A DNA stretch of 64,000 bases from Planctomycetota bacterium. GTDB taxonomy: Bacteria; Planctomycetota; UBA11346. The stretch spans positions 3,362 through 67,361 of the forward strand of contig JALHRW010000002.1 of assembly GCA_022841245.1 (NCBI GenBank). Direction: 5' to 3'. Below, in pieces: positions 3,946-50,002 of the stretch. Made by a program: the position numbers and the translations under genes. How positions within the stretch are numbered: the stretch's first letter is position 1; every line of letters begins with the position of its first letter. The notes beneath the pieces are model-generated. The model made no database searches. It had not been told where the DNA came from and saw nothing but the letters and a program-made list of their open reading frames with translations.

Positions 3946-4917
3946 ATGTTCGACGACGTGATCACCAGGGATGACGACGCGACTGGATGGCCGGCGCGAC
4001 GGGCGCGCATCCGCCAGCGCATCCTCGCCAGCATGGGCACGCCGTCCTGCCCGCTGCCGGGCGCGGTCGCCTGCCGCAGCGAAGGCCACCTGGTCGAGTA
4101 CGGTCTGCAGCGCGAGGACATCGCCTTCGAGGTGCTGCCCGGCCTGGTCTGCCACGGCCACTTCTACCACGGCGGCGGCACCGGCCTGCCCGGGGCGGTG
4201 TGCATCCACGGCACCAACCGCGATCTCGCCTGCAAGGCCGTCGCCGCGCCCGAGCTGAAGCCGGACATGGCCTACGCCATCGAACTCGCCCGACTCGGCT
4301 TCCTCGCCATCACCGTCGACCAGTTCGGCTTCGGCCGCTGGTGCGGGAAGGACGGCGAAGAGGCGTTGTACCGGCGCTTCTTCGCGGCGCACCCCGACTG
4401 GTCGCTCGACGGCATGCGCCTGCACGTGCAGCGCTGCGCGGTCGACGTGCTGCGCGCGCACCCCCTCGCCGATCCGACGCGCACCGTCTGCATCGGCAAC
4501 TCGCTCGGTGGGCGCTCGGCCCTGCACCTGGCAGCCTTCGATGAGCGCATCAACGCTGCTGCCGTCTCCACCGGCGTCAGTCCGAACCTGACCAACGTCT
4601 ACCGCAACACCGCGACCGATCCGTGCCTGGCGCTGAGCCCCCGGCTCAACGCCGCGATCGCCGAGGACGGCCGACCGCCCTGGGAATACCCGGAACTGCT
4701 CGCCCTGGTCGCGCCACGCACGCTGCTGCTGATCGAGCCGTTCAACGATCCGTACAACCCGTTCATCGAGGCGACCACCGCCTGCTTCCTGGCGGCGCGG
4801 CGGGTCTACGAACTGCTCGGCGCACCGCAACGCCTGTCGCTGCTCTGCCACGGCAACGGCCATGGCACGGCCGAACCGCTGCGCGCCTACGCCTACGCCA
4901 TGCTGCGCACGGCCTGA
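3946..4917 (+). CDS. alpha/beta-fold hydrolase (esterase / dienelactone-hydrolase-like)
   Basis: ORF 3946..4917 with AGGAG at 3933-3937. Nucleophile elbow GNSLGG. General alpha/beta hydrolase layout. Substrate unknown. Confidence 0.6.
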   Translation: MFDDVITRDDDATGWPARRARIRQRILASMGTPSCPLPGAVACRSEGHLVEYGLQREDIAFEVLPGLVCHGHFYHGGGTGLPGAVCIHGTNRDLACKAVAAPELKPDMAYAIELARLGFLAITVDQFGFGRWCGKDGEEALYRRFFAAHPDWSLDGMRLHVQRCAVDVLRAHPLADPTRTVCIGNSLGGRSALHLAAFDERINAAAVSTGVSPNLTNVYRNTATDPCLALSPRLNAAIAEDGRPPWEYPELLALVAPRTLLLIEPFNDPYNPFIEATTACFLAARRVYELLGAPQRLSLLCHGNGHGTAEPLRAYAYAMLRTA

Positions 4918-4920
4918 TCG

Positions 4921-7900
4921 TCAGCGCGACAGCTGGGCGATGCGCCACTCGGCAAAGCGCTCGATCAACGGATCCGGCCACGGCGCGGCGAGCCGGCGCT
5001 TGTGCCCGGGTAGGGCGAGGAAGGCCTTCCAGCCGGCCAGGGCCACGGCGGTGTCGCGCTGGGCGTCGGCACACATCGCGTCGCCCACGATGCGCCAGGC
5101 TTCGGCCTCGACCTGCATCGGTTGGGCGAGCAGGGCCTGGACCGGATCGGTCCCGTCGCAGTAGCGGGCGAGATGCCAGGCGCGACGGGCGAATCGGGTA
5201 TCGAAGGCCTGGGCTGCGGTCAGCCCGCGCCGCCAGGCACCCTCATTGCCGGCCAGCTCCTGCTGCAGCGGGATGGCGAAAAGCGGGAGGAACCAGTGGC
5301 GATCGAGCGGCGAGCGCCGGATGTCCTCGCCCAGCGTCCCGGCTTCGGCCCGTCCTTCCTCGATGGCGCGCAGCCAACGGGCCTGCTTGCGATGACGCGG
5401 TTCGTAATCGGTGAGGAAGCCCTCCTCCCAGCGGCCGAGACGATAGAGCGCTTCGCACGGCACCCAGGTGACGCCGGCCGGATCGGCGGCCTCCTCCCAG
5501 CGGCCGGCCAAGGCGAGCAAGGCTCGATTGCGCGCCCAGCCTGGCCTGGCCAGGGCCGCATCCACCTCACCACGCGCGATGTGGGCATAGACGCTGTCAG
5601 CCTGCGTGGTCGCCAGTTCCGACTGCAGATAGCGCCCGGACATGAGCAGGAGCACGGCGCGGCGGCCGGTCTCCAGGCCATCGAGGGCCAAGGCGTTGTC
5701 GACATCACCCAGTTCGACGAGGGCTTCACCGCGTTCGATGATCAGCGCCTCGGGGCTGTCGGCCACCTCGCGGCAGCGGCCCAAGGCGAGCAGAGCCGCG
5801 CAGCGCTCGCGTGGCAGGACGTACGGATCACGCAGCAGCTCTTCAGCCCGGTCCAGGCGCACCAGCATGCTCGCGGTGATCATCGCCGACGCCTGGTCGG
5901 CCGGCATGCAGCTGCGGCGGAGTGCGATCAGTTGGGCGCAAACGTCCTCCGCCGCCTCGCCTGGAATCTTGTTCCAACGCTGGGCCCAGCCCTGCCAGAG
6001 GTTGGACAGCATGGTGGCCAGCTGCGGCGCGCGGCGGTGCAGGGCGACGAAACGCTCGCCGATGCGGGGATCCCAGTCACCCGCTGCAGCATGCGTCAGC
6101 CGGTGGGTCTCGGCCCGATCGTTCCAGATGCCAGGTGGCAGCGCCGACCACAGGTCCAGGGCGCGCGCGGCGCGCTGGTCGCGGAAGGCGGCGAGCCCCT
6201 GCAGATAGCGCGCCTCGGCGCCCAGCTCGCCGGTGCGCATGGTGTCGGCGACCTGGCCCCAGCGGTGCTCGGCGCTGGCGAAGCGGCCCTCGGCGAAATC
6301 GGCCTCGCCGACCGACAGCACGCTGATCAGCTCGGCCGGCTGGCGGTTGTAGATGCGGATGTTGGAGAAGGCCTTGCCCGGATGGTAGGCGTAGAGCTCG
6401 AGGTGGCCGTTGCCCACCGTGGTGACGTCGTCGTTGAACGACAGCAGCTTGCGCCCGTCGATCGACAGCGAGAGGTTGCGGCCATCGATCTCGGCACGCA
6501 GTCGGTAGCGCCGCCCCGGCTCGAGACGCAGCGGCGAGAAGGCGACGAACTCGTTGGCGGGCAGGCGCAGGATCGCGCAGTGCGAATTCTGGAAGGCGCC
6601 GGCCTTGATCGCCCAGCCCGCCTTCGGCTTGCCGTCATCGGGACCATCGACCAGCCACTGGATCGAGAGGTCGCCGGGCACGGCGTTGGGCAGGAATTCG
6701 GCGTCGTATTCGATGGCCAGCTGCGGATTGAGCGGCCGCTTCAGGCGCAGGCGCGAGTCGTAGCCGCCGCGGCTGACCATCAGGCCCGGCCGGCGGTCCC
6801 AGGTGCCGACGAGGTCTTCTTCCCAGCGCTGGCGCCAGCCGTCGTCGCGGAAATCCTCGACCACCAGCGGCTCGCCCCAGCGCGCCACCTGGCGCATGCG
6901 TTCGCCATAGACGTACCAGCCGGCGGCGAGCAGGCATAGCGCGACCGCCGCCGCGATGGCGATGCGGCCGGCGTGCGCCCGCAGGCGCACGAGGGCGCGT
7001 TCGGCCAGACCGGGACGGTAGGCGCGCAGGGCCAGACCCTGCTGCCAGCGCGACAGCTCGGCGCCGAGCTCGCCGGCGTCGGCGTAGCGCCGCTCGGGAT
7101 CCGGATCGAGCGCTTTGCGCACCACGGCGAGCAGTTGGCGTCCGACGCGTTGCTCCTCGGCCGGCGACGGCCACGTGACGGCGCCCCGGCGCTTGCGCTC
7201 CCAGAACGCGGCGGGGTCGTCCTCATGGATGGGGACGCGCAGCAGCAGGGCCTGGAACAGCGAGCAGCCGATGGCGTAGACGTCGCTGCGCCGGTCGGCC
7301 GGTTCGCTGCGCGCCTGCTCCGGGCTCATGAAGTACGGCGTGCCGACCAGCCGGCCGATCGACGCCGAGGCCTCGCCGATGACCCGGGCCTCGCCCCAGT
7401 CCACCACCTGGACCTCGCCGTGCAGACCGAGCATGATGTTGTCGGGCTTGATGTCGCGATGGACGATGCCGCGGCTGTGCGCGCGGGACATCGCTTCGCA
7501 CACCTTGATGAACACGCCGACCACCTGCCCCGGCGTGGTCAGGTCGGCGACACTGCCGCCGCTGGTGGCCTGCGCGATCGCGTTGCCCAGGCTGCGCCCG
7601 ACGATCCGGCGCATGGTCAGGCAGGCCTTGCCATCCGGCTCGACCAGCAGGTCGTAGATCGGCACGATGTTGGGATGGTCGAGGCTGGCGGTGATGCGCG
7701 CCTCGCGCAGGAAGGCCTCGCCCTGCCGACCGGTGGTCGCGGCGAGCATCTTCAGCGCCACCTGGCGGCCGAGTACCGTGTCGCAGGCCTCGTAGACCGG
7801 TCCGCTGACGCCGCGACCGAGTTCGCCACCAAGGACATAGCGGGAGGCGGGCGTGCCGCCGGCGGCAGTCGCTTCGGCCGGACCCTCGCGGATCGTCTCC

Positions 7901-7929
7901 TCCAGTTCGTCCTGCCAGGGCCCGCTCAT
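4921..7929 (-). CDS. Hanks-type Ser/Thr protein kinase with one TM helix and a large extracytoplasmic C-terminal region
   Basis: ORF 4921..7929. Kinase motifs: GRGVSGPVY, VALKML, HRDIKPDN, DWG (DFG-like) and GTPYFMSPE. TM segment IAIAAAVALCLLAAGWYVY. A roughly 170-aa beta-sandwich-like segment follows (GWRQRWEEDLVGTWD ... GHLELYAYHPGKAFSNIRIYN), then helical repeats. The ATG overlaps the upstream stop (ATGA 7926-7929). Confidence 0.9.
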   Translation of the reverse strand: MSGPWQDELEETIREGPAEATAAGGTPASRYVLGGELGRGVSGPVYEACDTVLGRQVALKMLAATTGRQGEAFLREARITASLDHPNIVPIYDLLVEPDGKACLTMRRIVGRSLGNAIAQATSGGSVADLTTPGQVVGVFIKVCEAMSRAHSRGIVHRDIKPDNIMLGLHGEVQVVDWGEARVIGEASASIGRLVGTPYFMSPEQARSEPADRRSDVYAIGCSLFQALLLRVPIHEDDPAAFWERKRRGAVTWPSPAEEQRVGRQLLAVVRKALDPDPERRYADAGELGAELSRWQQGLALRAYRPGLAERALVRLRAHAGRIAIAAAVALCLLAAGWYVYGERMRQVARWGEPLVVEDFRDDGWRQRWEEDLVGTWDRRPGLMVSRGGYDSRLRLKRPLNPQLAIEYDAEFLPNAVPGDLSIQWLVDGPDDGKPKAGWAIKAGAFQNSHCAILRLPANEFVAFSPLRLEPGRRYRLRAEIDGRNLSLSIDGRKLLSFNDDVTTVGNGHLELYAYHPGKAFSNIRIYNRQPAELISVLSVGEADFAEGRFASAEHRWGQVADTMRTGELGAEARYLQGLAAFRDQRAARALDLWSALPPGIWNDRAETHRLTHAAAGDWDPRIGERFVALHRRAPQLATMLSNLWQGWAQRWNKIPGEAAEDVCAQLIALRRSCMPADQASAMITASMLVRLDRAEELLRDPYVLPRERCAALLALGRCREVADSPEALIIERGEALVELGDVDNALALDGLETGRRAVLLLMSGRYLQSELATTQADSVYAHIARGEVDAALARPGWARNRALLALAGRWEEAADPAGVTWVPCEALYRLGRWEEGFLTDYEPRHRKQARWLRAIEEGRAEAGTLGEDIRRSPLDRHWFLPLFAIPLQQELAGNEGAWRRGLTAAQAFDTRFARRAWHLARYCDGTDPVQALLAQPMQVEAEAWRIVGDAMCADAQRDTAVALAGWKAFLALPGHKRRLAAPWPDPLIERFAEWRIAQLSR

Positions 7930-8999
7930 GACCGGACATCCTGAGCCGCCCCGCTGACCGGCAATGGCCGCACCGCCAGCCGGAACGGCGGACCAGCGAC
8001 ACCGGCGAGATTGAGCGAGCGCAGCGACAGCGCGATGCCCTTGGCCGGCAGGCGCAGCGAGAACAGTTCATGGCAGGCCTGCCAGGTCGCGCCGTCGGTC
8101 GACACCTGGTAGGCGGCGAGATTGGGCGTGCACGAATCGATGCGCACCTGCAGCAGGCCGCTCTCGATGCGCAGATCGCAGGCGAGCACGTTCGGCGTCC
8201 ACTCGATCCACGAGCGGTGCACCGTGCGGATGAAGAAGCCGGCCTCGTAGGCCCAGTGCGGCTTGCCGTCGCGGATCCAGGTGCCGGCGCGGAAGGCCTC
8301 GTCGTCGAGCACGACCAGGCTCGCCTGCCCGCTGCACGGCAGCGAGCTGAAGGCGGCGGTACCGGGCTCCCACGACAGCCAGCGGTAGAACGAAGCGTCC
8401 TCGCCACCGCGGCGCGGCCCCTCGCGGCGCTCGGGACCATAGACCAGTCGCACGCCGGTCGCGCCGTCGCGCAGCACCTGGTCGCGGATCTCCAGGGCCG
8501 AGAGCGGAACGCCGTCGAGCTCGTAGTGCAGGTCGTACTTGGCGTCGACCACCACCCATTTGCGCAGAGCGTTGACCCACACCTCGTTGACCCCGTGGTG
8601 GCGCCCGTCCTGCAGCGTACCCGGGCCGACGCCGAGCCGCCGGCAGACGTGGCCGTAGGCGTTGAGCACCGTGTCCTGCACCACGGTGAAATGCGCGCAG
8701 TGGAAGCGCCCGCCCTGCGCCGCCGCATCGAGGATGGCGACCGCGTGGCCATGCAGGGTCGGAGTCGGATTGGCGTCCTCGATGCCGATGCGCCGGGCGA
8801 TCCAGTGCCGCAGGGCGAGGATGCGCGCCAGCTCGTCCTCGACTCCGGCGACGGCCTCGTCGATGGCGAAGCGCGCACGCAGCGCAGCGAAGCGGGGATC
8901 GCGCAGGTCCTCGTAGGCGGGGAACAATTCATTGCGGCGCAGCTCGGGGTTGCCCGACTGGTCTATTTCGAATCCCGGGTGAGTCGCTTGGGACGTCAT
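7926..8999 (-). CDS. transglutaminase-like (Cys-His-Asp core) protein, paralog 1
   Basis: ORF 7926..8999. Papain/transglutaminase-like triad context: GGRFHCAHF ... GRHHGVNEVW ... VVDAKYD. No obvious signal peptide. It is clearly paralogous to 48912..49994. ATGA overlaps occur at both ends. Confidence 0.7.
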   Translation of the reverse strand: MTSQATHPGFEIDQSGNPELRRNELFPAYEDLRDPRFAALRARFAIDEAVAGVEDELARILALRHWIARRIGIEDANPTPTLHGHAVAILDAAAQGGRFHCAHFTVVQDTVLNAYGHVCRRLGVGPGTLQDGRHHGVNEVWVNALRKWVVVDAKYDLHYELDGVPLSALEIRDQVLRDGATGVRLVYGPERREGPRRGGEDASFYRWLSWEPGTAAFSSLPCSGQASLVVLDDEAFRAGTWIRDGKPHWAYEAGFFIRTVHRSWIEWTPNVLACDLRIESGLLQVRIDSCTPNLAAYQVSTDGATWQACHELFSLRLPAKGIALSLRSLNLAGVAGPPFRLAVRPLPVSGAAQDVRS

Positions 9000-11899
9000 T
9001 GATCCACCGCCGAACGCAGGCCCTGGTAGCGATTGCGCAGCCAGCGCTGGAAGAGGACGTGGCTGTCGGACATGCCGGTACCGGCGGCACGAACGGCAGG
9101 CGTGCTGTAGACGAAGTTCCGGTCCACCACATCGCCATCGGGATCGACGACGTACACCGTCTCGAGGTTGTCTTGCGCAATGGCGACGCCACGCACCTCG
9201 TCGAACACTTCGCCACGCACGAAGATGCGGTAGAACCGGCTCTTCTGGAAATCGATGTAGCCGGTCAGGGAGAAGCGCTTCATCGCAGCACCGGCCACGC
9301 TGGCGGCTGGCACGTTGCCCCCCGAATAGCAGCTGCAGCGCACGATGCCGTCATCATCGAGATCCAGCGGCCGGAAGTCGGGGTAGGATGGACTGGCGCC
9401 GAAGAAGCTCATGCGCATGTCGTTGACCACCAGCTCCATCAAACCGGCCTCATCGGTCTGACCACCCAGACGGATCGTCTTGATCGTCGCGCTCTGTACC
9501 GTGGCCAACGGCGTCATATCCACCAACTCTATCGCCGGCGGCTTCTCACTCGTTCCCTTCAAGACGCGAATACCATCCACCGGAACCGTCGGGCGGCTAC
9601 CCGTTGCATATTCAAGCGGACTTTCTCCGAGATTCCGAAGGAATTGCGCGTCTACTTCACGCACCGTATCGAAGGTCGACGGCACATCCGGTACACCATC
9701 GCCATCGACGTCACGGTCACGGGCGAAGCCGTCAACGGAGAAGTTCGGTGCGTCGGCAACCGGGAAGTATCCTGCAGGTATGTACCTCGCCGTCGATGAC
9801 GAAGGCCAACGCGGCACACCCGAACCAGGGGTCAACGATGTAGCACCAACCAACTTGTCGCACCAGGCCCAGTGGGCCAACGCGAGAGCATTCATCATCG
9901 AGGCATGCAGATCCTGCCAATAGGTAACGAAGTACGAAGTCTGATTCACCAGTTCGATGTACGCGCCATCGGTTATCGCCGCGTTCTGCACTTGCTTCAG
10001 CACCGTTTCCGAGAGCGCATTCTTGAGCGGGATGGTATACGTCGCATCCGATCCAACTTGGCTGATGCCTGCATCATCAAGATACCTCGTCGAATCCCAG
10101 AAAGCGTTCCCATTGCGATCCAACCACGAATGGGGCTCCCATCCCCCGGGGCCTGATCCAGGGTGGTTGCACGGCGAGCCACCTGGCCTTTCCGCTGGAT
10201 TCTGGATATCGTCACCATTCGGATCGCAAATCGGACAGGTCTTGTCCCACATCGTGATGACGGTGTCGGGTTCATTGTGGGACAGCACTCGCATGCCCAG
10301 ATCCGAAGCCCATCCTGGCATACTCGCCAGATCGCTGCCCGGATACGGAGCTCCGGGATGGATCCCGCCACGATCCGCGAAGTAGGCCTCCCCAGCCATG
10401 GCGGAGAAGAGCCGCACATGGTGGGCCTCCAGCATCCACGGATTGCCGACAGGCGCGTCCTCATCTGGGCAACCGGCATCATCCCAGGTCGAACCGGTCC
10501 AGTTGGATTTCTTCTTCTTCAGATAGGCACGAGCAAGGAATTCGGCTGGCATGTAAGCGGTGACCATCTGGGCGAGCGCGCGTGGCGCCGCCGTGGGCAG
10601 GTTGATCCGCCAGGGGCAGTCGACATAGCCCTGGTTCCACGCCATCGGAGTTGCCGCCGGCTCCGGGATCCTGCCGAATGGCGTGAACAGCAGTTGCAGC
10701 CAGCAGATGTTCCCATCCGTCGTCATCTGCTGCAGATGCATACGATGGAAGCTGGGCATCGGGCCCAGGGCGAAATAGTCGAATACGCCACTGTCCGATC
10801 TGCGCGCGTTGGGGCGTCTGTCCGCTTCGCCAGGATCGGTCGCATTGATGTAGTCCTGCCAACGCTGCAGATCGCCGGCGGGGCCAACCCCTCCGAGCAG
10901 ACGTCGGGATCGCCCGCCCGACAAGCCGGTGCCCGAATCCGACCCGGGAGGCGACACCATCGGCGTTCCAAGACCGCTGAAGGCGAGATCGAGCAATTCG
11001 CCATAATTTCCCACGCTCGACGGATGGGTGTGCCGTGCGAGATTGTTGATCGCACCGGCATAGCGTCGGGAGAGCACCGGATCAACTTCGGCAGCACGCG
11101 TCTGGTCGGCATCCGCCGGCACCGTCGGGGGGGTGGCGGCAGCGGAGCGGGCCGCAGGATCGTAGGATCCAGGAGCCGCGGCCAGCAGATGACCGCCGAG
11201 GTCCTCGACAGCCACCGCATAGCGCAAGCGGTAGCGACGTTGCGCCGGATCCTCGGTGGCGACGAAGGACGCATCGTACCACAATGGCGCATTGATGTCC
11301 GGCGACCAGTTCTCTCCAGCGCGTCGCGCCGGATCGAGACTGGCGGGCTGCGACGGACAGGGATGCGGCAGATGGAAGGACAGCGGCTGTGCCAACGGAT
11401 CCGTTGTCAGCACCCCCGGCTCGTACCAGCGAGCATTCCCGCTGTGGAGGAGGTAGCCATATCTGATGGCATTGTCGCGTTCACGGTAGCCGCTGCCCCT
11501 CGGGTGGCGGTCCATGTACAGATCGAGCAGCCGGCTCTCCCACTGGACATCGTTCCCGTTGACATCCTCTGGCGATCCCGCTTCGCCCAACGGCGCCTTC
11601 TGACTCGACGGCGGGCTGGTGTACCGAACCTTCATCGCATCAATCGGCCAGAAGTGGGTCCGCCAGGCATCGGTCAGCTGCGTCGGGATCGCCTTGCGGT
11701 TGTCGAATTGCCTGCGGATCACGCCGATGGCGTGATCGACCCCCTCCTGGGCGGCGAGTTGGGCGAGCGCCGGGGCCTGCAGGGTGCGTTGTCCTGCATA
11801 CGCCGCCCGCGCCGAGACCAGCATGGCGAAGGCCAAGGCGATGATGATGCCGAGCAGTCCGAGGATGGTGAGGAAGACGAGTCCGGATGCGGTCTTCAT
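8996..11899 (-). CDS. giant (967 aa) pseudopilus-associated protein, GspK-like N-terminus
   Basis: ORF 8996..11899. The N-terminal anchor MKTASGLVFLTILGLLGIIIALAFAMLV resembles a prepilin helix but lacks Glu5, as in GspK-type minor pseudopilins. The large extracellular part has Asp-rich Ca-binding-like segments (DRDVDGDGVPDVP). It is translationally coupled on both sides. Confidence 0.6.
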   Translation of the reverse strand: MKTASGLVFLTILGLLGIIIALAFAMLVSARAAYAGQRTLQAPALAQLAAQEGVDHAIGVIRRQFDNRKAIPTQLTDAWRTHFWPIDAMKVRYTSPPSSQKAPLGEAGSPEDVNGNDVQWESRLLDLYMDRHPRGSGYRERDNAIRYGYLLHSGNARWYEPGVLTTDPLAQPLSFHLPHPCPSQPASLDPARRAGENWSPDINAPLWYDASFVATEDPAQRRYRLRYAVAVEDLGGHLLAAAPGSYDPAARSAAATPPTVPADADQTRAAEVDPVLSRRYAGAINNLARHTHPSSVGNYGELLDLAFSGLGTPMVSPPGSDSGTGLSGGRSRRLLGGVGPAGDLQRWQDYINATDPGEADRRPNARRSDSGVFDYFALGPMPSFHRMHLQQMTTDGNICWLQLLFTPFGRIPEPAATPMAWNQGYVDCPWRINLPTAAPRALAQMVTAYMPAEFLARAYLKKKKSNWTGSTWDDAGCPDEDAPVGNPWMLEAHHVRLFSAMAGEAYFADRGGIHPGAPYPGSDLASMPGWASDLGMRVLSHNEPDTVITMWDKTCPICDPNGDDIQNPAERPGGSPCNHPGSGPGGWEPHSWLDRNGNAFWDSTRYLDDAGISQVGSDATYTIPLKNALSETVLKQVQNAAITDGAYIELVNQTSYFVTYWQDLHASMMNALALAHWAWCDKLVGATSLTPGSGVPRWPSSSTARYIPAGYFPVADAPNFSVDGFARDRDVDGDGVPDVPSTFDTVREVDAQFLRNLGESPLEYATGSRPTVPVDGIRVLKGTSEKPPAIELVDMTPLATVQSATIKTIRLGGQTDEAGLMELVVNDMRMSFFGASPSYPDFRPLDLDDDGIVRCSCYSGGNVPAASVAGAAMKRFSLTGYIDFQKSRFYRIFVRGEVFDEVRGVAIAQDNLETVYVVDPDGDVVDRNFVYSTPAVRAAGTGMSDSHVLFQRWLRNRYQGLRSAVDQ

Positions 11900-12894
11900 G
11901 GGCCAAACTCCGGCAGCATGGGGGCGGTACGGATGGTGAAGGTGCAGGTGCGGGACGGCTCATGCGCCAGGTCGGCCGGTTCGAGCTGGTTGGCGGTCAC
12001 CAACCCGAACGAGATGCGCATGAGGAGCGGGCGCTGCGCCGATGCCAACCTGGCGCTGCCGACGGCGGCGAGCGGGCGAGCGTCGAGCCAAGCCCCATCC
12101 AGGACGTGATTGAACCCGTCGGCCCAGGGCTGGCCGATCGGCACCTGCGCGGCGCCGAGACGGTTGCGGATGGTGACTCCGGAATCGGGGCCGGCGCGGA
12201 CTGCATAGCCATCGCCATCGACCCACTCGATGACCAGTCGGCGGACCTGGTTGAACGGCAAGTGCATGAGCCGCAGGTTGCGGTCCAGATCGGCGCCGTT
12301 GCCCGGCAACTGCAAGGCGGCATAGACGCCTGCCGTCATACCTGGCAGGTGCCGCAGGTCATTGTCGTCCATGTCCCGGCGACGGTCGCGCCGCGCCTGC
12401 GGACCGGTACGGACCGACCCGGAGCTGGTCGAGGCCGCCGGTGAAGCGATGGACTGAGACAAGCGAATGGGGCTGGACACGGCGTACTCCAACCGGCCGC
12501 CGTCCTTGCCGCTGCCACGACCAGTCCAGCGCAGGCGGTTCCAGACCAGATCGGATACGTGGCCCGGCTGGACGTCCATGGTCGGCTCGTCCACATCACC
12601 CTGGGCCGACATCCAGGTCAGCTCGACCACCTCATTGCCATCGTCCCACACCGCCGGGCTCTCGCCCGGATCGACGCGCAACCGGACCTGGGCCGGGTGG
12701 TACATCGCCGACAGCGACCGGGCGAGCCGCTGGTGGATGGACGCCGCCAGATCGCAAGCCTGCAGCATGGCGATATTGCGATTGAACGCCCGGCTGACGT
12801 GCAAGAGGGCGTTGGTGCCCAGAGCGATCAGCGCCAGGCCGATGGCGATGCTGATCAGCAGTTCGATGAGCGTGAAGCCGTTGCGACGCGGCAT
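11896..12894 (-). CDS. prepilin-type N-terminal cleavage/methylation domain protein (minor pseudopilin, GspJ-like position)
   Basis: Within ORF 11896..12993. I chose the ATG at 12894 because it gives MPRRNGFTLIELLISIAIGLALIALG, the canonical G/FTLIE prepilin motif. This ATG shares one base with the upstream TGA (TGATG). Confidence 0.8.
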   Translation of the reverse strand: MPRRNGFTLIELLISIAIGLALIALGTNALLHVSRAFNRNIAMLQACDLAASIHQRLARSLSAMYHPAQVRLRVDPGESPAVWDDGNEVVELTWMSAQGDVDEPTMDVQPGHVSDLVWNRLRWTGRGSGKDGGRLEYAVSSPIRLSQSIASPAASTSSGSVRTGPQARRDRRRDMDDNDLRHLPGMTAGVYAALQLPGNGADLDRNLRLMHLPFNQVRRLVIEWVDGDGYAVRAGPDSGVTIRNRLGAAQVPIGQPWADGFNHVLDGAWLDARPLAAVGSARLASAQRPLLMRISFGLVTANQLEPADLAHEPSRTCTFTIRTAPMLPEFGP

Positions 12895-13340
12895 CAGGGC
12901 CCCCGCGGAATGCAACGCAGGACCCGTCGACGGATCGAGGTGAGGTGCTCGTCCTCCTGACCGGCGTACACATGCACCGTCACCATCGACCAACGGCTGG
13001 CATCATCGATGAGGTCGGCGGCACTCGAGGATTCCTGACGCACGACGTAATAGCCGTCGAGCCAGCCGTAGACGGAGAAGTCGTAGGTCGCTGCCGCCGT
13101 GACCGCTAGCGTGCCAGAACCGTACCAACCATCCTTGTCGGCATCACCGGCATCCGCCGTACGCCCTCCCGGCAGCGGATCGTAGAGGACGGTCTCGGCC
13201 GCCGCGACCGCCGTCATGCGCAACTGCGCCGTCACGCCCAGGCGGGTGGCGTAGCGCATCATGCCGATGACGGCCGCCACACCCATGACCGCCAGCAGCA
13301 GGCTGGCGAGGATTTCCAGCAGGGTGAAGGCGCGCCTCAT
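12894..13340 (-). CDS. small prepilin-type protein (minor pseudopilin, GspI-like size)
   Basis: Within ORF 12894..13526. The internal ATG at 13340 gives MRRAFTLLEILASLLLAVMGVAAVIGMM. ATGA overlap with the upstream gene (13337-13340). Confidence 0.8.
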   Translation of the reverse strand: MRRAFTLLEILASLLLAVMGVAAVIGMMRYATRLGVTAQLRMTAVAAAETVLYDPLPGGRTADAGDADKDGWYGSGTLAVTAAATYDFSVYGWLDGYYVVRQESSSAADLIDDASRWSMVTVHVYAGQEDEHLTSIRRRVLRCIPRGP

Positions 13341-14845
13341 TCGTCGAACCACCAGATGCGGTCCGCAAGCATGCGCTCGGTGACGATATAGTTGATCGGT
13401 TTCCCGGTACGCTGCAGGGCATAGCCGGTCGTTGCCTTGTCTTGATGCAGCCAGCCGAGTCGGCAGCGGCGGAACACCGGATTGCCCGCCGACGTCTGCA
13501 GCCAATCGCTGGGATTGGCCGGCCACACCGCATGCCCGTCCAGGTAGGCGTCCTGGCGGCGCTGCACCCGCATCACCTGCACCGCACCCGATGACCCGAC
13601 GTAGACGCGATAGGCTGGCGTGATCGCATCGAGCACCGCCCGGGCATCAGGGAAATCATTGCCGTCGACCACGGCGTCTGGTCCCAAGGTGATGTGGTAC
13701 CCGGCATTGTGGCCCTCGAAATGCACCACCTCGGCATTGCAGTCCTCCTGGAGGTAGTCCCAGCGGCTGATGGTGTACTGTTTGCCCTGTCCGCCCTGGT
13801 CGACGAGGCTCTGATCGCTGCAGTTCTTGGCCCGGTCATTGCACCCATTCTTGCGGAACTGCGGCCAGTTCTCGTCTCCTGGCGTCGGTGCCGTGGACTG
13901 CACCGGCTCATAGGTCCGACGCCCCTGGTTCCACTCGAGGAAGGTCGCCTGGCCAAGCGGATTGAACACGATGCAGGCATCCATCCAGTCGGCGTTGACC
14001 AGCGGGCGCGGCTCGCCGATCCGCCAGAGCGCAAAGCCGACTTCCCGTTCGCGCAGGTCGTCGACATCGCCGTCCCCGTTCATGTCGACATCCTGGAACA
14101 CGCCATCGAGCAGCTCCGCGCGGCGGAAGCTGTTGTTGAACACGCGGCTGTCTGGATTGCGCGAATCGCCGATCGGGCCGCCGCTACCTTCGTAGTAGAA
14201 ACCGGAATATTTGACCGCCTGCTGGTAGCCGCCCCATGGCCACCACTTCTTCGCCGCCGGATCGAACCAGCCGAACCAGGGACGCGGATAGGTCCGTTCG
14301 CCGCCATCCCCGTAATAGATGTCGATCGGGCCAGGAGAATTGTTGAAGCGCGGGGCCTGGGTGCGGCGCGGCCCCTCATCGATGTCGGCCAGGGCGAGGA
14401 AGCGCACCTGCCGCGCAGGCAGGCGCACCGGCTCGCTCACCCAGCTGTCTGCGATATTGGCGATGTAGTCGGGGAAGTTCGGCTGGAAATGGCGATTGGC
14501 GTCGTCGCGCAGATTCCACACCGGCGCGATCAGGGCGCGCGAATTCAGGTTGCCGCCCAGCTGGTGCGGTCCGATGACCCGGTACCAATGGCCACCCGAC
14601 CAGTTGTTGAGCACCAGCCCCGAGGTACCGGGCTGGTTCTGGATGTTGAAGACGACGCCGAAGGCGGCCTGTTCGCTCATCGCCCGGCTGCGCGTCTGGC
14701 GCAGCACCGCGGCGAGGCCCTCGGCAGCGCCGCGTACCTGGGCGTCCTTCTCATCGCGCTTCATCGAGCGCATGCCGATACCCATCAGCAGCAGCACGAT
14801 GCTCAGCACGACCAGCAGTTCGACCAGACTGAAGGCCCGCCTCAC
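13337..14845 (-). CDS. large (502 aa) prepilin-type N-terminal domain protein
   Basis: ORF 13337..14845. The GTG start overlaps the upstream stop (GTGA). N-terminus: MRRAFSLVELLVVLSIVLLLMGIGM. The globular part is unusually long and contains DVDMNGDGDVDD. Confidence 0.8.
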   Translation of the reverse strand: MRRAFSLVELLVVLSIVLLLMGIGMRSMKRDEKDAQVRGAAEGLAAVLRQTRSRAMSEQAAFGVVFNIQNQPGTSGLVLNNWSGGHWYRVIGPHQLGGNLNSRALIAPVWNLRDDANRHFQPNFPDYIANIADSWVSEPVRLPARQVRFLALADIDEGPRRTQAPRFNNSPGPIDIYYGDGGERTYPRPWFGWFDPAAKKWWPWGGYQQAVKYSGFYYEGSGGPIGDSRNPDSRVFNNSFRRAELLDGVFQDVDMNGDGDVDDLREREVGFALWRIGEPRPLVNADWMDACIVFNPLGQATFLEWNQGRRTYEPVQSTAPTPGDENWPQFRKNGCNDRAKNCSDQSLVDQGGQGKQYTISRWDYLQEDCNAEVVHFEGHNAGYHITLGPDAVVDGNDFPDARAVLDAITPAYRVYVGSSGAVQVMRVQRRQDAYLDGHAVWPANPSDWLQTSAGNPVFRRCRLGWLHQDKATTGYALQRTGKPINYIVTERMLADRIWWFDE

Positions 14846-15720
14846 GGCAGCTCTCCGCGGATCGTCCTGAGAGCGACGTTGTCGCGATTCGCCACTTCAT
14901 CACGCTGCGCGGCGATCAGCCCGTCGGGGCCCATGCTGACCAGCTCGAAGGTGCGGCACAGGCGCGGCGGAGCCGTGGTGCGCATGTCCGATGCCGCCGT
15001 GCTGGCAGGCAGCCGGCCACTGCCCGTCATGCCATACCAGTCCAGCCGCACGAAGAAGCTGCAGTCGGCTGGCACACGCGAGCGCATGCCGGGGAGCACA
15101 GGGCTGATGTAGACCAGTGGCCGCCGCCAGGCATCGACCACCGCATCGCCCTGCCTGACGTCGACGGCCAAGCCATCGAGGTAGGCATCGGCATAGCCGC
15201 GCGATTTCGGATTCGGCACCACCGCCGTGGTCGGCTTGTTGCGCAGACCGGTGACCGCGGTGTTTCCGGAGAGGATGGCCAGCGTCGCGCGTTCCGCCCC
15301 CATGCGGTTCACCATCGCCACATGCGGCGGCTTGAGGTCGCCGGCCGCGGTTTCCGGATTCAGATCGGCCTGGCCGAACACATGCGAACCACCGAGCTGG
15401 TACGCAGCCTTGGCGGTGGCGAGGTCGTCGTCCAGATCCTGGCGTTCGGCAGTGGTCAGCGCGTGTCCCAGGACCCAGGCCAGGCGATTGTCGGCGGCGG
15501 GGAATGCCGAGGCGGTCGGATGGTCCTGGAACGGCAGCACGTTCATGTCGGCCTGGAACAGGCCGATCGCGGTCTCCACCTTCGCCAGCACGGCCCGAGT
15601 GTTGGTCAGCGCTGCCGTGCGCCGCGCCAGCACGGTGATCGGCGCCGCCAGTCCGATCAGCACGGTGATGATGGCCATCACCATGATCAGCTCGATCAGG
15701 GTGAATCCGCGGCGCCTCAT
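14842..15720 (-). CDS. prepilin-type N-terminal domain protein (292 aa)
   Basis: Within ORF 14842..16011. The internal ATG at 15720 gives MRRRGFTLIELIMVMAIITVLIGLAAP. ATGA overlap with the upstream gene (15717-15720). Confidence 0.8.
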   Translation of the reverse strand: MRRRGFTLIELIMVMAIITVLIGLAAPITVLARRTAALTNTRAVLAKVETAIGLFQADMNVLPFQDHPTASAFPAADNRLAWVLGHALTTAERQDLDDDLATAKAAYQLGGSHVFGQADLNPETAAGDLKPPHVAMVNRMGAERATLAILSGNTAVTGLRNKPTTAVVPNPKSRGYADAYLDGLAVDVRQGDAVVDAWRRPLVYISPVLPGMRSRVPADCSFFVRLDWYGMTGSGRLPASTAASDMRTTAPPRLCRTFELVSMGPDGLIAAQRDEVANRDNVALRTIRGELP

Positions 15721-16274
15721 CGTCCGCCCTCGCACAGGATCCAGCGTTCCGCGTCCTCGGACTTGCCGCCGTTCCCAAGCGACCAGAGATAGGCGAACGG
15801 CAGCGCACCTTCGATGCGCTTGAGTGGATCGGTCGGATCCGGCCGCACCCCCCAGCCTCGCTCGCGACCGGCCGCGGCGTCCCAGTTCCAAGCCGACAGT
15901 TCCGTCGATCCAGTCGCCGGCACGGGCCTGGCCAGGGCGTAGCGATAGAAGGCGCCCCAGGGGTCGAGCAGGCGACCATCGACATCGACCTTCCGTTGGC
16001 TGCGCTGCCACATGCGCTTGTCCTCCAGATGCTCCTGGAGCGCTGTGCCGATCGACAGGTCGACCGCCACGGCCGGGAAGCGGCGGCGGGCATCCTCGTT
16101 GCGGTACAGGTCGAAGGCGGTCTGCAATTCCCGCAGCGTCTGCTTCGTCTCGGTAACCCTTGCGCGGGTGCGCACCAGACCGACGGCAGGGATGAGGATG
16201 CCAGCGAGCAACGTGATGATGCCGACCACGACGAGCACTTCGATCAGAGTGAATCCGCCGCGCGCCGTCGCCAT
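15717..16274 (-). CDS. gspG: type II secretion major pseudopilin GspG-like
   Basis: Within ORF 15717..16928. The ATG at 16274 gives MATARGGFTLIEVLVVVGIITLLAGILIPAV plus the GspG-like LLDPWGAFYRY motif. An alternative in-frame ATG at 16340, inside the GGTGCACC element, would add a 22-aa leader. Confidence 0.8.
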   Translation of the reverse strand: MATARGGFTLIEVLVVVGIITLLAGILIPAVGLVRTRARVTETKQTLRELQTAFDLYRNEDARRRFPAVAVDLSIGTALQEHLEDKRMWQRSQRKVDVDGRLLDPWGAFYRYALARPVPATGSTELSAWNWDAAAGRERGWGVRPDPTDPLKRIEGALPFAYLWSLGNGGKSEDAERWILCEGGR

Positions 16275-16329
16275 GCGTCCACTATAGGCGGACCAACCGG
16301 GTTGCCCAGTCCATCGCGCCGTGGCGTAT

Positions 16330-16375
16330 GGCGATCCCATGGTGCACCATATATCGCGCGGCACTGGCCTCACAA
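16330..16375 (-). promoter_or_regulatory. candidate promoter plus GGTGCACC element of the pseudopilin operon
   Basis: The minus strand reads TTGTGA (16375-16370), a 16-nt spacer, then TATATG (16353-16348) running directly into GGTGCACCATGGGATCGCC (16348-16330). Confidence 0.5.
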
Positions 16376-16530
16376 CGCCTATTGCGTCATTCCTCAACCC
16401 GATTCCGGCCATCGCTTTATCGATATTTTGCTTGAAAGAGCAACTGTTTTCCGCCATCCTGATGAAGCTACCCATTACCCCTAAGCAACTTGCAGATATC
16501 AGTCGCATAGCTGCCTCCAACCATATAGTG

Positions 16531-16550
16531 TGGTGCACCATGGGTTCACT
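16531..16550 (+). promoter_or_regulatory. GGTGCACC element overlapping the oxidoreductase start codon
   Basis: TATAGT (16523-16528), then GTG, then GGTGCACCATGGGTTCACT (16532-16550). The embedded ATG (16540) is the only plausible start of the downstream CDS. Confidence 0.5.
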
Positions 16551-17622
16551 TACACACAATCTGGAAAGCCTCCCTCTCGCCACTGGTGCACCACAGCGCC
16601 GGACACGTCGGCCGGCCCGACTGGCCTTCGTCGGATTGGGCAAATTCGCGCAGGAACTCGCCACTGCCTGCACCAAGCAGCCACGGCGGATCACCATAGC
16701 CTCGTGCTTCACCCGCACCGCCGCCACCCGCGACGCGTTCGCCCGGACCTTCGCCTGCGGCCAGCACGACTCGTTCGAGGCCCTGTGCGCCGATCCCGAT
16801 ATCGATGGTGTGGTCCTGGCGACACCCAACGACACGCACGGCGACCAGACCGTCGCCCTGGCGCGCGCCGGCAAGCACGTCTTCGTCGAGAAGCCGCTGT
16901 GCAACACCCTCGACGAGGCCGATCGCATGATCGCCGCCTGCGCCGAAGCCGGCGTGATCCTGGCGGTGGGTCACCAGGAGCGTCGGCACAGCGTCTACCG
17001 ACGGATGAAGAACATGCTGACCAGCGGCGCGCTCGGCCGCGTCCTCGCCTTCGAGGCCAACCACTGCGGCAACCTGGTCGGAATCTGGCCGAAGGACGAT
17101 TGGCGCTTCGACACGGCGCGCGGGGTCGGCCCGCTGCTGCACAAAGGCATCCACAAGATCGACATCCTCAACTACCTCTTCGGTCGCGCCGAGACGGTGG
17201 CGACGCTGACCATCCCGCTGGCGATCAATCCGGCCATGCCGGGCACCACCGTCTCGGTGCTCGGCTTCCGCGGCGGCATCATCGGCAGCCTGACCTCGGG
17301 CTTCGAGCACAACAACTCCTCCTTCACCATCAGCGGCAGCGTACGCTCGATCGCCTACTCCGGCCACGGTCCGAGCATCCGGGTGAAGGACGAGCGCACC
17401 TGGACCTTCCAGGAGATCGATTGCGGGGCCGACGATCCGCTCGGCGAGGAGCTCGGCGAGTTCGCCGAGGCGGTGCGCGGCGCCGGCCCGGTCGAGGTCG
17501 ACGGTCAGGCCGCCCGCGAGGCCATCGCCGTCGCGGTGGCGGCGCAGAGCGCAGCCGAACGTGGAGCCGTGGTCCAGCTCGACGAGTTCCGCCACGCCGC
17601 GATCGCGGCCGAATCCGCTTGA
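16540..17622 (+). CDS. Gfo/Idh/MocA-family NAD(P)-dependent oxidoreductase
   Basis: Within ORF 16321..17622. Rossmann start LAFVGLGKFAQ. Family motif HVFVEKPL and AVGHQERR. Start placed at ATG 16540; no ATG lies closer to the Rossmann fold. Confidence 0.8.
   Translation: MGSLTHNLESLPLATGAPQRRTRRPARLAFVGLGKFAQELATACTKQPRRITIASCFTRTAATRDAFARTFACGQHDSFEALCADPDIDGVVLATPNDTHGDQTVALARAGKHVFVEKPLCNTLDEADRMIAACAEAGVILAVGHQERRHSVYRRMKNMLTSGALGRVLAFEANHCGNLVGIWPKDDWRFDTARGVGPLLHKGIHKIDILNYLFGRAETVATLTIPLAINPAMPGTTVSVLGFRGGIIGSLTSGFEHNNSSFTISGSVRSIAYSGHGPSIRVKDERTWTFQEIDCGADDPLGEELGEFAEAVRGAGPVEVDGQAAREAIAVAVAAQSAAERGAVVQLDEFRHAAIAAESA
16584..16593. promoter_or_regulatory. third TGGTGCACCA palindrome, 53 bp downstream of the second and inside the 5' end of the CDS
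   Basis: Exact TGGTGCACCA read at 16584-16593 (codons ACT GGT GCA CCA). It lacks the GCWCC extension. Confidence 0.35.
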
Positions 17623-17677
17623 CCGTGCCTGCGCCTGGATCACCTGCGGTGCGCCAGCCAAGGTACGAGGAGAGCCC

Positions 17678-18718
17678 GTGAGCAAGGCCAGCGACATCGC
17701 CGACACCATCCTGAAGCGCGTCCGCACCGGCGCCTACCCGGACAAGGTCCCCGGCGAACGCAGTCTGGCCGAGGAGTTCCGCGCCGATTTCAAAACTGCA
17801 AATCGCGCCATCGGTCTGCTGGTCGAGCAGGGCGTGCTGGAGCGCCGCCGCGGGCAGGGCACCTTCGTCAAGCGCCTCGACCAGCGCCGCGACGCCACCC
17901 TCTCGCTGTGCTTCTACAAGTTCGCCGATCTCGGCCGCGATCCGGTATTCACCCGCTTCTTCGCCGGCATGAACAGCGCCGTCACCAGCCACCGCGTGCG
18001 CCTGCACGTCACCACGCTCAAGGATGTGGTCGGCGACGACAAGCTCGATCCGGCGCAGAGCGCCGAGCGCTTCGTGCGCGATGCGCTGGCGGTCGATCCC
18101 GACGGCATCATCTACCTCGGCAACGTCGACATCCCGGTGATCGAGCGCCTGCGCGCCGACCGGCCGCTGATCGCGGTCGCCGAATGCCCGCCGTCCCTGG
18201 CGGTCGACAGCGTGCGGCGGAACATCCGCGCCGGCACCGCCGACGCCGTGCGGCGCTTCGCCAAGGCCGGCCACCAGCACATCGCCCTGGCGACCTACCG
18301 CCACGATGCCACCTCCTTCGACCTGGCCGAGAAGGAGCGCGGCTACCTGGAAGCGATCGAGGAGCTCGGCCTGCAGCCGCGCATCCTGCACCGCACCAGC
18401 CCGGCCGAGGAGCAGCTGACGCAGCAGCTCCTCGCGGTGACCCCGCGTCCGACCGCCGTGGTCGCCAGCGAAAGCACCATCGGCCTGGCCCTGGTGCGCA
18501 GCGCTCCCGGCCTCGGCCTGCGCATTCCGCAGGATCTCGCCGTCACCTCGTTCGACGACGGCGACATCGGCTCGTTCACCCAGCCGCAGATGTCGAGCAT
18601 CCACGCCTTCGGCGAGGAACTCGCCACGCTGGCGGTCGAGCGCATGATCGGCCGGCTCGATGGCCGCATCACCGGCCGGATCGACGACGTCCTGCCCTGC
18701 CCGAGCATCGAGCGTTGA
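17678..18718 (+). CDS. hybrid transcriptional regulator: GntR-type winged HTH plus LacI/PBP1-type sugar-binding domain
   Basis: Within ORF 17561..18718. GTG at 17678 is preceded by GGAGAG. N-terminus: ERSLAEEFRADFKTANRAIGLLVEQGVLERRRGQGTFV. The C-terminal domain is LacI-like (IALATY ... LAVTSFDDGDIG). Confidence 0.8.
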   Translation: MSKASDIADTILKRVRTGAYPDKVPGERSLAEEFRADFKTANRAIGLLVEQGVLERRRGQGTFVKRLDQRRDATLSLCFYKFADLGRDPVFTRFFAGMNSAVTSHRVRLHVTTLKDVVGDDKLDPAQSAERFVRDALAVDPDGIIYLGNVDIPVIERLRADRPLIAVAECPPSLAVDSVRRNIRAGTADAVRRFAKAGHQHIALATYRHDATSFDLAEKERGYLEAIEELGLQPRILHRTSPAEEQLTQQLLAVTPRPTAVVASESTIGLALVRSAPGLGLRIPQDLAVTSFDDGDIGSFTQPQMSSIHAFGEELATLAVERMIGRLDGRITGRIDDVLPCPSIER

Positions 18719-18759: not shown

Positions 18760-18779
18760 AGGTGCACCATAGGTTAACC
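18760..18779 (+). promoter_or_regulatory. GGTGCACC element upstream of the jelly-roll / heparinase operon
   Basis: TGTTAG, then GGTGCACCATAGGTTAACC (18761-18779), 15 nt before the ATG at 18794. Confidence 0.5.
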
Positions 18780-26376: not shown

Positions 26377-26399
26377 ATGGTGCCCCATTGGTGCACCAA
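26377..26399 (-). promoter_or_regulatory. GGTGCACC element upstream of beta-helix gene 24548..26353
   Basis: The minus strand reads TTATTG, then GGTGCACCAATGGGGCACC (26397-26379), 25 nt before the ATG at 26353. Confidence 0.5.
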
Positions 26400-40995: not shown

Positions 40996-41011
40996 GAGGG
41001 TCCTGGATGAT

Positions 41012-44403: not shown

Positions 44404-44419
44404 GTGGACTCCTTGGGTG

Positions 44420-47515: not shown

Positions 47516-47562
47516 GGAGCACCTATGGTGCACCTTATACGCGACGGCTACCTCATATTCAA
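47516..47562 (-). promoter_or_regulatory. candidate promoter plus GGTGCACC element of the 24-kb minus-strand gene train
   Basis: The minus strand reads TTGAAT (47562-47557), a 17-nt spacer, then TATAAG (47539-47534) running directly into GGTGCACCATAGGTGCTCC (47534-47516). An A follows, then the GTG start at 47514. Confidence 0.55.
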
Positions 47563-49994: not shown

Positions 49995-50002
49995 GACGAT
50001 CC

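Follow-up and report, generated by a model that had tools for sequence, protein, structure and literature searches.

A 64,000-nt stretch of DNA of probable Planctomycetota origin (hereafter the window) carries, on the minus strand at positions 4921-16274, a chain of eight overlapping genes, g1 to g8. The first six encode pseudopilin-like proteins in the order of a type II secretion system (T2SS) gspGHIJK operon, with one extra G-like gene and several oversized subunits. This six-gene cassette is one copy of a multi-copy family of deeply diverged paralogues, which lie in islands of carbohydrate-active enzymes (CAZymes), with no assembly-machine genes found close by. The explanation that we prefer, with a probability of about 0.5, is that g1 to g6 form a locus-specific pseudopilin module that would be driven by machinery encoded elsewhere in the genome and would serve the capture or uptake of each island's glycan, with the membrane-anchored g8 as a coupled sensor.

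A pseudopilin-type gene set with oversized subunits

What do the genes of this chain encode, and how tightly are they linked? The region holds eight open reading frames (ORFs), all on the minus strand, with the boundaries, order and sizes (185, 292, 502, 148, 332, 967, 357 and 1002 aa) reported in a preliminary description of this DNA made from its sequence alone (Table 1). As that description also held, all eight genes are translationally coupled via overlapping stop and start codons, by 4-nt ATGA or GTGA overlaps at six junctions and a 1-nt overlap at g4/g5. The GC content at third codon positions (GC3) is 0.73-0.83 in g1 to g6 vs. 0.87-0.92 in g7, g8, and the neighboring genes, a difference that could stem from faster evolution of the six-gene cassette or from its having a separate origin.

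The N-termini of g1 to g5 are those of prepilins: a short basic leader, then (G/A)-F-(T/S)-L-(I/V/L)-E and a hydrophobic helix, with Glu5 kept in all five. A six-frame motif scan of the window found exactly five prepilin-type N-termini, every one of them in the g1-g5 block. A complete class III (prepilin) signal with Gly at -1 is present in g1, g2, and g5, which also exceed the cut-off of the Pfam N_methyl model (23.8, 30.8, and 29.7 bits, respectively); g3 and g4 fall below it (g4, E 0.034). The sixth protein starts differently, as MKTASG/LVFLT (the slash follows the Gly), with a helix after the Gly and Thr at +5. Glu at +5 was found in none of eight aligned g6 relatives.

Beyond their leaders, the proteins show graded likeness to individual T2SS pseudopilins. 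For g1 this is GspG (TIGR01710, 46.7 bits over residues 7-114, cut-off 88.85; T2SSG, 18.1 bits, cut-off 21), with likeness to Escherichia coli GspG restricted to the N-terminal 52 aa. The second gene also has an N-terminal match to GspG (38.6 bits), and its position is conserved in nearly all related loci. GspH (TIGR01708) is matched by g3 at 25.4 bits (cut-off 80) and by 68 of the 68 g3-family members tested (best E 3e-14, N-terminal matches). At the next position, g4 has a PilV N-terminal match (E 0.002, below cut-off), and its place between the H-like and J-like genes is conserved across loci. The matches of g5 are N-terminal and weak (GspJ, 15.9 bits, cut-off 64.85; PilV, E 0.0007, below cut-off), and tblastn with E. 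coli GspJ hits the g5 position of eight related loci. Pfam and NCBIfam scans gave no match for g6 itself; T2SS_GspK is matched by 3 of 45 g6-family members (best E 1.6e-6), and g6 is always the final gene of the cassette in the loci compared. Judged by curated cut-offs of the hidden Markov models (HMMs), then, g1 to g6 are not predicted members of the GspG/H/I/J/K equivalog families. Because of the gene order and these weak family affinities, the set nevertheless behaves as a gspGHIJK operon plus one extra G-like gene, in line with the G-H-I-J-K reading first put forward.

The oversized members singled out in the preliminary description are equally real. The E. coli K-12 GspG/H/I/J/K proteins have 145/169/125/195/327 aa, and those of the window 185(+292)/502/148/332/967 aa, so that the H and K subunits are each about 3 times and the J subunit (g5) 1.7 times the canonical size. 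An AlphaFold2 model of g3 built from 68 homologues (mean predicted local distance difference test score [pLDDT] 89, predicted template modeling score 0.90) places a pilin-type helix (residues 7-58) before a beta-rich body. A g3 profile compared with PDB sequences matched N-terminal pilin helices alone, and XcpH, FimU, and EpsH were among the top-ranked but nonsignificant Foldseek matches of the model (E 0.5-7), which suggests that the modeled body has a fold without a PDB match. For g6, a profile search of PDB sequences returned nothing beyond a chance EutN match (E 0.14). The protein carries Asp-rich motifs resembling calcium-binding loops (DRDVDGDGVPD at 728 and DLDDDG at 846), and its family keeps two such loops, DxDxDGDGxxD and DxDDDG; EF-hand and CBM_5_12 were each matched weakly in 2 of 45 members. 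The two large families (about 500-aa H-like and 900-1200-aa K-like) correspond to no Pfam family except the short N_methyl motif and have no structural relative.

Conservation, copy number, and missing machinery

How widespread is this gene order? We assembled related loci from annotated contexts, a scan of a genome collection, and a scan of metagenomes (80 loci). In tblastn searches with the window proteins, the order G, G-like, H, I, J, K was held in about 85 metagenomic and metagenome-assembled genome (MAG) loci, wherever the contig was long enough. The named records among these relatives are Planctomycetota MAGs; the source of the window and the related loci are probably Planctomycetota. 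Full-length homologues of g3 number at least 137. For g6, a word-indexed search gave nine relatives, and a HMMER pass over 1.84 billion representatives gave 270 at E<=0.001, of which 155 reach E<=1e-30, the full-length members having 860-1250 aa.

The cassettes are a multi-copy family of deeply diverged paralogues. The genome-collection scan with a g6 alignment yielded three true loci in two MAGs, one of which (UWPOB_PLANC5) has two cassettes with g6 proteins only 30% identical. At least seven cassette lineages (29-46% identity) occur in assembly JFJP01, and more than 35 cassette-bearing contigs in one Joint Genome Institute (JGI) metagenome. The preliminary description had called the arrangement undescribed. 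This holds insofar as the open-access literature that we searched contained no description of pseudopilin cassettes in Planctomycetota CAZyme clusters or of their sensor partner; the arrangement is not unique, however, being one copy of a large family.

The assembly machinery is consistently missing from these surroundings. Pfam annotation of about 40 ORFs and tblastn searches found no secretin, GspE/PilB ATPase, GspF/PilC platform, or prepilin peptidase in the window, as had been noted before. No tblastn match to the GspC/D/E/F/L/M/O proteins of E. coli K-12 and no GspE-type Walker A motif turned up in 91 loci (824.5 kb with the window); in the window and the related loci alike, core machinery is absent within 10 kb of the cassette. 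Orthologous operons that always adjoin complete T2SS machinery would have spoken against a dedicated module, but none of the 91 loci (0/91) has this arrangement.

The cassette lies in glycan-degradation islands

In what genomic surroundings are the cassettes found? CAZymes and a local regulator are present in every Pfam-annotated context with a full or nearly full cassette (Table 1); one partial annotated locus has CAZyme-type neighbors, with the regulator not in view. At L007 and L008, two loci from distant Planctomycetota MAGs, a GH9 gene adjoins the cassette and its sensor partner, so the cassette travels with different CAZyme families. The specific tie to secreted beta-helix enzymes proposed in the preliminary description was thus too narrow: other copies lie with GH9, with GH3/GH31/GH2, with sulfatases and GH5, or with rhamnosidase and GH20, and the association is with CAZyme islands generally, not with beta-helix enzymes specifically.

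The rest of the window is, by its predicted genes, itself a glycan-catabolic island. Among about 35 other ORFs, Pfam identified GH20, GH4, GH130, heparinase II/III-like, PcRGLX-like, and glucuronyl-esterase-like proteins, together with a major facilitator superfamily transporter, ATP-binding cassette (ABC) transporter permeases, an AraC regulator, and a GntR/Peripla_BP_3 regulator. The cassette shares a regulatory element with this island. The palindrome (A)TGGTGCACCA has 16 matches in the window at <=1 mismatch, both strands counted, vs. 0.86 expected, a count reached in 0 of 100 shuffles, and several sites are in tandem with 11-bp spacing. As first described, the same element lies in the g1 promoter and before glycan operons, namely those at 18794, 26353, 47514, and 54739. 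Two copies of it also occur in the equivalent intergenic region of L004, the closest related locus. The regulator at 17561-18718, which combines a GntR helix-turn-helix with Peripla_BP_3, is a candidate binder of TGGTGCACCA; it and the GFO_IDH_MocA oxidoreductase also flank the cassette as a pair in L001 and L004. The Pfam domains of this oxidoreductase (16321-17622) begin at residue 100 of the ORF.

Could the placement in CAZyme islands simply reflect island-wise gene transfer, with the cassette encoding a general adhesion or biofilm pilus and having no glycan function? Adhesive type IV pili typically have modular pilins and large minor pilins at the tip (PMC8179133), type IV pili of Fimbriiglobus aid chitin adhesion (summarized in PMC11131199), and the GC3 of g1 to g6 below that of their neighbors is compatible with a separate history. 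We consider this reading improbable: CAZymes and a regulator accompany the cassette in all Pfam-annotated contexts except the one partial locus, the cassette promoter and the glycan operons have a common operator-like palindrome, and a frequent transmembrane (TM) sensor partner points to functional integration.

The same surroundings bear on a second possibility, a secretion piston, which is the chief rival and corresponds to the secretion accessory of the preliminary description; here, the locus-specific pseudopilus would push the CAZymes of its island through the outer membrane and the enlarged tip would recognize cargo. In its favor, the genes follow the gspGHIJK order, and such HMM affinity as the proteins have, although weak, is to T2SS rather than to type IVa pilus families. 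The islands encode many secreted enzymes (beta-helix/He_PIG, GH20, GH9), with which the cassette would be coregulated via the shared palindrome. The GspK-I-J tip of the T2SS, moreover, touches both the secretin and substrates. Yet a piston gives no obvious reason for many deeply diverged cassettes per genome, as dozens of unrelated enzymes normally leave the cell through one T2SS that has just one set of pseudopilins. Nor does it need threefold-enlarged tip domains, and no GspC-type cargo adaptor lies beside the cassettes. We therefore regard secretion as unlikely, although a secretion module of this kind would still be unusual, providing cargo-specific, exchangeable pseudopili for one T2SS.

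Partner genes: a possible membrane sensor and a putative hydrolase

Is the kinase gene at the end of the chain a true partner of the cassette? By its sequence motifs, g8 is a Hanks-type kinase with intact catalytic motifs (Pkinase, 131.6 bits, cut-off 31.7; GRGVSG at 38, VALK at 57, HRDIKPDN at 157, DWG at 177, SPE at 202). Its ectodomain (about 345-1002) comprises a beta-sandwich-like part followed by helical, TPR-like repeats with weak TPR matches, and a word-indexed search with it found six relatives. A chance neighborhood can be ruled out, because g8 homologues lie beside cassettes in 11 loci. Of the 17 loci whose downstream flank was read for 2.5 kb or more, 7 have the homologue directly after the cassette in the same orientation (L007, L008, L011, L016, L018, L025, and L047); in L032, L052, L054, and L055 it lies upstream and is divergent. 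A search from the kinase side led to a further relative, P0297, directly after a cassette of 404/576/128/310/969 aa.

These neighbors are 27-39% identical to g8, and the match spans the extracytoplasmic part. The partners at L008, L016, L018, L025, and L054 lack a kinase domain and have, besides TM segment and ectodomain, just a short tail in the cytoplasm, whereas those of L047 (10891-13785) and P0297 have a degenerate, partial Pkinase domain (17-19 bits). The relatives of g8 thus come in three forms (intact, degenerate, and no kinase), with the TM segment and ectodomain common to all. Sub-threshold matches to DUF6250 (cut-off 26.9 bits) in four of them (window, E 0.055; L016, 0.0051; P0297, 0.0011; L047, 0.0008) fall on one and the same region of the model. 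Because the kinase is missing or degenerate in neighbors, the recurrent partner of the cassette is a membrane-anchored periplasmic domain, and the kinase is an optional output. The idea of a built-in sensor kinase therefore survives in modified form: homologues do stand beside 11 cassettes, some at 27-32% identity, but what is conserved is the ectodomain, five neighbors having no kinase and two a degenerate one.

Only 3 nt separate the end of g8 from the stop codon of a convergent glucuronyl-esterase-like gene (3946-4917), and this gap at 4917-4921 leaves no space for separate terminators of the two genes.

The transglutaminase-like gene g7 is a different case. Its Transglut_core match (22.1 bits, E 1.9e-4) is just under the cut-off of 23, Cys101, His134/135, and Asp152 are invariant across six aligned g7-type sequences, and the protein has no hydrophobic segment. 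A g7 gene behind g6 is confined to the nearest clade (L001/L002, L003, L004/L012): of the 18 loci whose downstream flank was read for at least 1 kb, 2 have it, and so does L004, where the contig ends inside the gene. The window also encodes a g7 paralogue (48912-50054), with about 73% nt identity over long stretches, in an He_PIG/beta-helix/DAO/GH20 operon. Signal peptides are present in the g7 homologues of L001 and L003 (in L003 this requires an upstream start at 8529). Restriction to one clade and a paralogue in an enzyme operon make g7 likelier to be an enzyme of the locus than a fiber component, so that its inclusion in the layout by the preliminary description does not extend beyond the closest clade. 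We rejected a role as pilus component as unlikely on these grounds; by its predicted fold and its distribution, g7 is probably an enzyme of the island and not part of the filament.

What might the cassette do?

The Planctomycetota and other members of the PVC (Planctomycetes-Verrucomicrobia-Chlamydiae) group are major polysaccharide degraders that take up whole polymers without the SusC/D and TonB machinery that accounts for such uptake in Bacteroidota. For the uptake mechanism of these bacteria, the cassette offers a testable candidate because it is conserved, multi-copy, island-specific, part of a glycan regulon, and often accompanied by a membrane sensor.

We think it likely that g1 to g6 are a locus-specific, exchangeable pseudopilin module relying on machinery encoded in trans, and locus-specific because every copy examined has a CAZyme island and a regulator of its own, the copies are diverged paralogues, and in the window cassette and island share a palindrome. 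A prepilin peptidase would presumably process the subunits, and an ATPase, a platform, and a secretin with genes at other sites of the genome would polymerize them. Assembly would be primed by a tip of I-J-K(-H) proteins, beneath which g1 (and g2) would polymerize. With H, J, and K enlarged, that tip would bear about 1,800 residues of family-specific globular domains and could be the locus-specific element that gives each island its own specificity. We are evenly divided on whether g8 is a sensor coupled to the cassette; in the periplasm, its ectodomain would respond to glycan or filament state, a signal that in the window would be relayed by the cytoplasmic Hanks kinase. The g7 product may be a hydrolase with a transglutaminase fold that belongs to the island of this clade and acts on a specific substrate.

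A role in glycan capture or uptake is held more tentatively, at somewhat less than an even chance. The cassette would capture the island's glycan at the cell surface and then hand it over into the periplasm. Capture is slightly favored over enzyme secretion, because one cassette per island parallels one SusC/D pair per polysaccharide utilization locus (PUL) and because there are precedents in the PVC group (Akkermansia, Planctopirus, and Fimbriiglobus). A bolder version, which we regard as doubtful, would be "selfish" uptake: each island's pseudopilus, with its giant H-J-K tip, would bind its polysaccharide, and a shared T2SS- or type IV pilus-like motor would, by extension and retraction, pull the polymer across the outer membrane and into the enlarged periplasm without SusC/D. 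The partner ectodomain would then read filament or glycan load, and its kinase-fused form would tune expression or motor activity. If this were true, the cassettes would be the missing apparatus for glycan acquisition in Planctomycetota; they would add a new functional class to the type IV filament superfamily and give a whole phylum an organizing principle equivalent to the PUL.

Several observations weigh against the capture reading in general. The core machine is assumed to lie elsewhere in the genome, and filament formation, surface exposure, and glycan binding are properties that we infer for the cassette from genomic context. Canonical T2SS pseudopili act in secretion and remain periplasmic. 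All GspG/H/I/J/K HMM scores are under curated cut-offs and mostly cover the N-terminal helix, and E. coli GspK, compared by hhalign with a g6-family profile, aligned over the N-terminal helix alone (probability 6%). In g3 and g4, F+1 and E+5 are kept but the residue at -1 is Ala instead of Gly, which may mean weaker cleavage by the peptidase. Of the two largest subunits, for which the preliminary description had proposed profiling and structure prediction, the 502-aa g3 proved to have a confidently modeled pilin-type helix with a large body, for which Foldseek found no PDB match at E<=0.001, whereas the model of the 967-aa g6 (eight homologues, pLDDT 27.7) was unusable. A carbohydrate-binding domain was not detected in any of the window's own proteins. 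The sensor partner is present in only about 40% of the loci with adequate flanks, and two g8 relatives, P0298 and P0299, have no cassette within the available flank. The window g7, like the L004 copy, lacks the signal peptide of its paralogues.

Might the cassette, then, form no filament at all? The prepilin leader would in that case be no more than an inner-membrane anchor or export signal of periplasmic proteins, for instance binding proteins or unrecognized enzymes, and the cassette would encode a membrane-tethered periplasmic complex, to which the TM-anchored g8 ectodomain could also belong. Many DUF1559-type "pilin-like" proteins occur in PVC bacteria, and one is encoded in a related island; the absence of assembly genes nearby, the Ala at -1 in g3 and g4, and globular parts without a pilin-fold match outside the helix all fit such a complex. 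What makes it very improbable in our view is the coupled, full G/H/I/J/K-like set in canonical order with a Glu5-less K, the signature of a polymerizing tip plus stalk, and the retention of Glu5 in g1 to g5. We keep the locus-specific pseudopilin module for glycan capture as the best overall explanation.

Further features of the window and related loci

Coordinates are collected in Table 1. Two sets of paralogous secreted proteins are encoded in the window. The first (24548-26353, 50003-51784, and 52970-54739, all on the minus strand) combines He_PIG Ig-like domains with a right-handed beta-helix; in the second (35008-38049, 37991-39598, and 39496-41034, likewise all on the minus strand), He_PIG is significant only in 35008-38049. 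Both trios are long, diverged direct repeats with 60-80% nt identity, which suggests a locally amplified enzyme family.

Genes of amino-acid and D-alanine metabolism lie within the glycan island of the window at 43297-44463, 47693-48847, and 57152-58588 (alanine dehydrogenase, DAO FAD oxidase, and S13 D-Ala-D-Ala carboxypeptidase), and L001 has an alanine racemase beside GH20 (19496-20728). Together with the PIG-L deacetylases of L003/L004 and the g7-type hydrolase, the D-alanine genes hint at a glycopeptide or peptidoglycan-like target polymer.

On the P0297 contig (JGI 3300059473), a DUF1559 (SBP_bac_10) prepilin-like gene at 14081-14779 lies next to a beta-helix protein and a rhamnosidase; with such a gene in a cassette-bearing island, two kinds of pilin-leader protein co-occur in glycan islands. 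Finally, tandem repeats with a 14-nt period (GCTGGGCGCTGGGC... and CCAGCAGCCAGC...) at 55217-55333 and 55429-55499 lie at the 5' end of gene 55225-56865, which encodes an unusual fusion of TPR repeats to two RNA-polymerase alpha C-terminal domains.

Table 1. Cassette genes, regulatory elements, and neighboring genes of the window, and gene contexts of related cassettes
Feature	Position	Strand	Description
g1	15717-16274	-	185 aa, GspG-like, probable major pseudopilin, N-terminus MATARGG/FTLIE
g2	14842-15720	-	292 aa, second G-like prepilin, larger globular part
g3	13337-14845	-	502 aa, minor pseudopilin, GspH/FimU-like; about 440 aa form a globular domain with unmatched fold
g4	12894-13340	-	148 aa, minor pseudopilin, GspI/PilV-sized
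g5	11896-12894	-	332 aa, enlarged minor pseudopilin at GspJ position
g6	8996-11899	-	967 aa, giant subunit at GspK position, anchor without Glu5
g7	7926-8999	-	357 aa, transglutaminase-fold putative cysteine hydrolase, without signal peptide
g8	4921-7929	-	1002 aa, Hanks Ser/Thr kinase 31-282, TM 323-341, ectodomain about 345-1002
Divergent promoter, putative operator	16339-16594		three TGGTGCACCA sites: 16339-16350, 16530-16541, 16583-16594
GFO/IDH/MocA oxidoreductase	16321-17622	+	divergent from g1; true start probably near 16600
Regulator, start codon uncertain	17561-18718	+	Pfam GntR E 8.9e-10, Peripla_BP_3 E 2.8e-23
TGGTGCACCA, 1 mismatch	18760-18770		upstream of gene 18794-19828
TGGTGCACCA tandem pair	26377-26399		upstream of He_PIG/beta-helix gene 24548-26353
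TGGTGCACCA	47525-47536		upstream of gene 46471-47514, head of GH20 operon
TGGTGCACCA	54738-54749		start of He_PIG/beta-helix operon 52970-54739
g7 paralogue	48912-50054	-	380 aa, 53% aa identity, signal peptide, Transglut_core E 0.0013
L001 context			rhamnosidase, GH20, alanine racemase, GntR/Peripla_BP_3, GFO_IDH_MocA
L003/L004 context			PIG-L deacetylase, heparinase-like protein
L007 context	7847-10336		secreted GH9 + CelD_N, between g6 and kinase
L008 context	15007-18105		secreted GH9 + CelD_N
L010 context			sulfatases, GH5, AraC, GDSL esterase
L011 context			GH3, GH31, GH2-like, LacI, kinase
P0297 contig context			LacI, DUF1559 pilin-like gene, beta-helix, rhamnosidase, GH3

Comparison with known systems

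How does the cassette relate to systems already described? The closest in kind is the T2SS gspG-H-I-J-K set (E. coli K-12 gsp, Pseudomonas Xcp, and Vibrio Eps), which it resembles in gene order and tight overlaps, in a G-type major subunit with Glu5, in H/I/J minor subunits, and in a Glu5-less K that is last and largest. It differs by the extra G-like gene, the enlarged H, J, and K, and the lack of adjacent gspC-F, L, M, and O; its family is also multi-copy, located in CAZyme islands, and often accompanied by a TM sensor or kinase. Compared with the type IVa minor-pilin operon (fimU-pilV-W-X-Y1-E), the cassette proteins gave no PilY1, PilW, or PilX match and just weak N-terminal PilV matches (g4 and g5).

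The closest annotated analogue is Verru_Chthon A-D (TIGR02596, TIGR02598, TIGR02599, and TIGR02600), a functionally uncharacterized cassette of prepilin-like proteins that occurs in multiple copies in Verrucomicrobium and Chthoniobacter. Like the window cassette, it belongs to PVC bacteria, is multi-copy, has prepilin leaders, and includes one very large protein, but it has four genes as opposed to six in G-H-I-J-K order. Protein D is matched N-terminally by 66 of 68 g3-family members. Window proteins reach 17-24 bits on D (cut-off 70) and 12-14 bits on C (cut-off 256.5), over the N-terminal helix only; A and B were unmatched by window proteins, and A also by the g6-family members tested. We rejected membership in Verru_Chthon, as the HMM scores are far under the cut-offs.

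Functional precedents come from other PVC bacteria. In Akkermansia muciniphila, which lacks SusC/D, glycan accumulation needs mucin utilization locus (MUL) genes, including pilus genes (PMC12418764 and PMC13174399). This is a precedent for pilin-like genes in glycan acquisition, and the proposed likeness to the cassette is one of function. MUL2 has a PilM-like protein, an archaeal-type pilin, and two uncharacterized genes but no G-H-I-J-K cassette, and the MUL loci are single, as against one cassette per CAZyme island here. As PMC11131199 summarizes, Planctopirus, with an enlarged periplasm, binds dextran at crateriform structures, and type IV pili help Fimbriiglobus adhere to chitin. Modular type IV pilins such as Streptococcus sanguinis PilB (PMC8179133) join a pilin N-terminus to large globular modules that would endow the filament tip with specific binding, and the g3 model has a layout of this kind; in the cassette, however, the added g3 and g6 domains match no known module, and several tip subunits are enlarged at once.

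A last parallel lies in organization. The proteins of a Bacteroidota PUL are entirely different from those described here, which include no TonB-dependent transporter, and the analogy is an inferential one; but in both cases, each island combines a nonenzymatic apparatus with its own enzymes, a regulator, and often a TM sensor.

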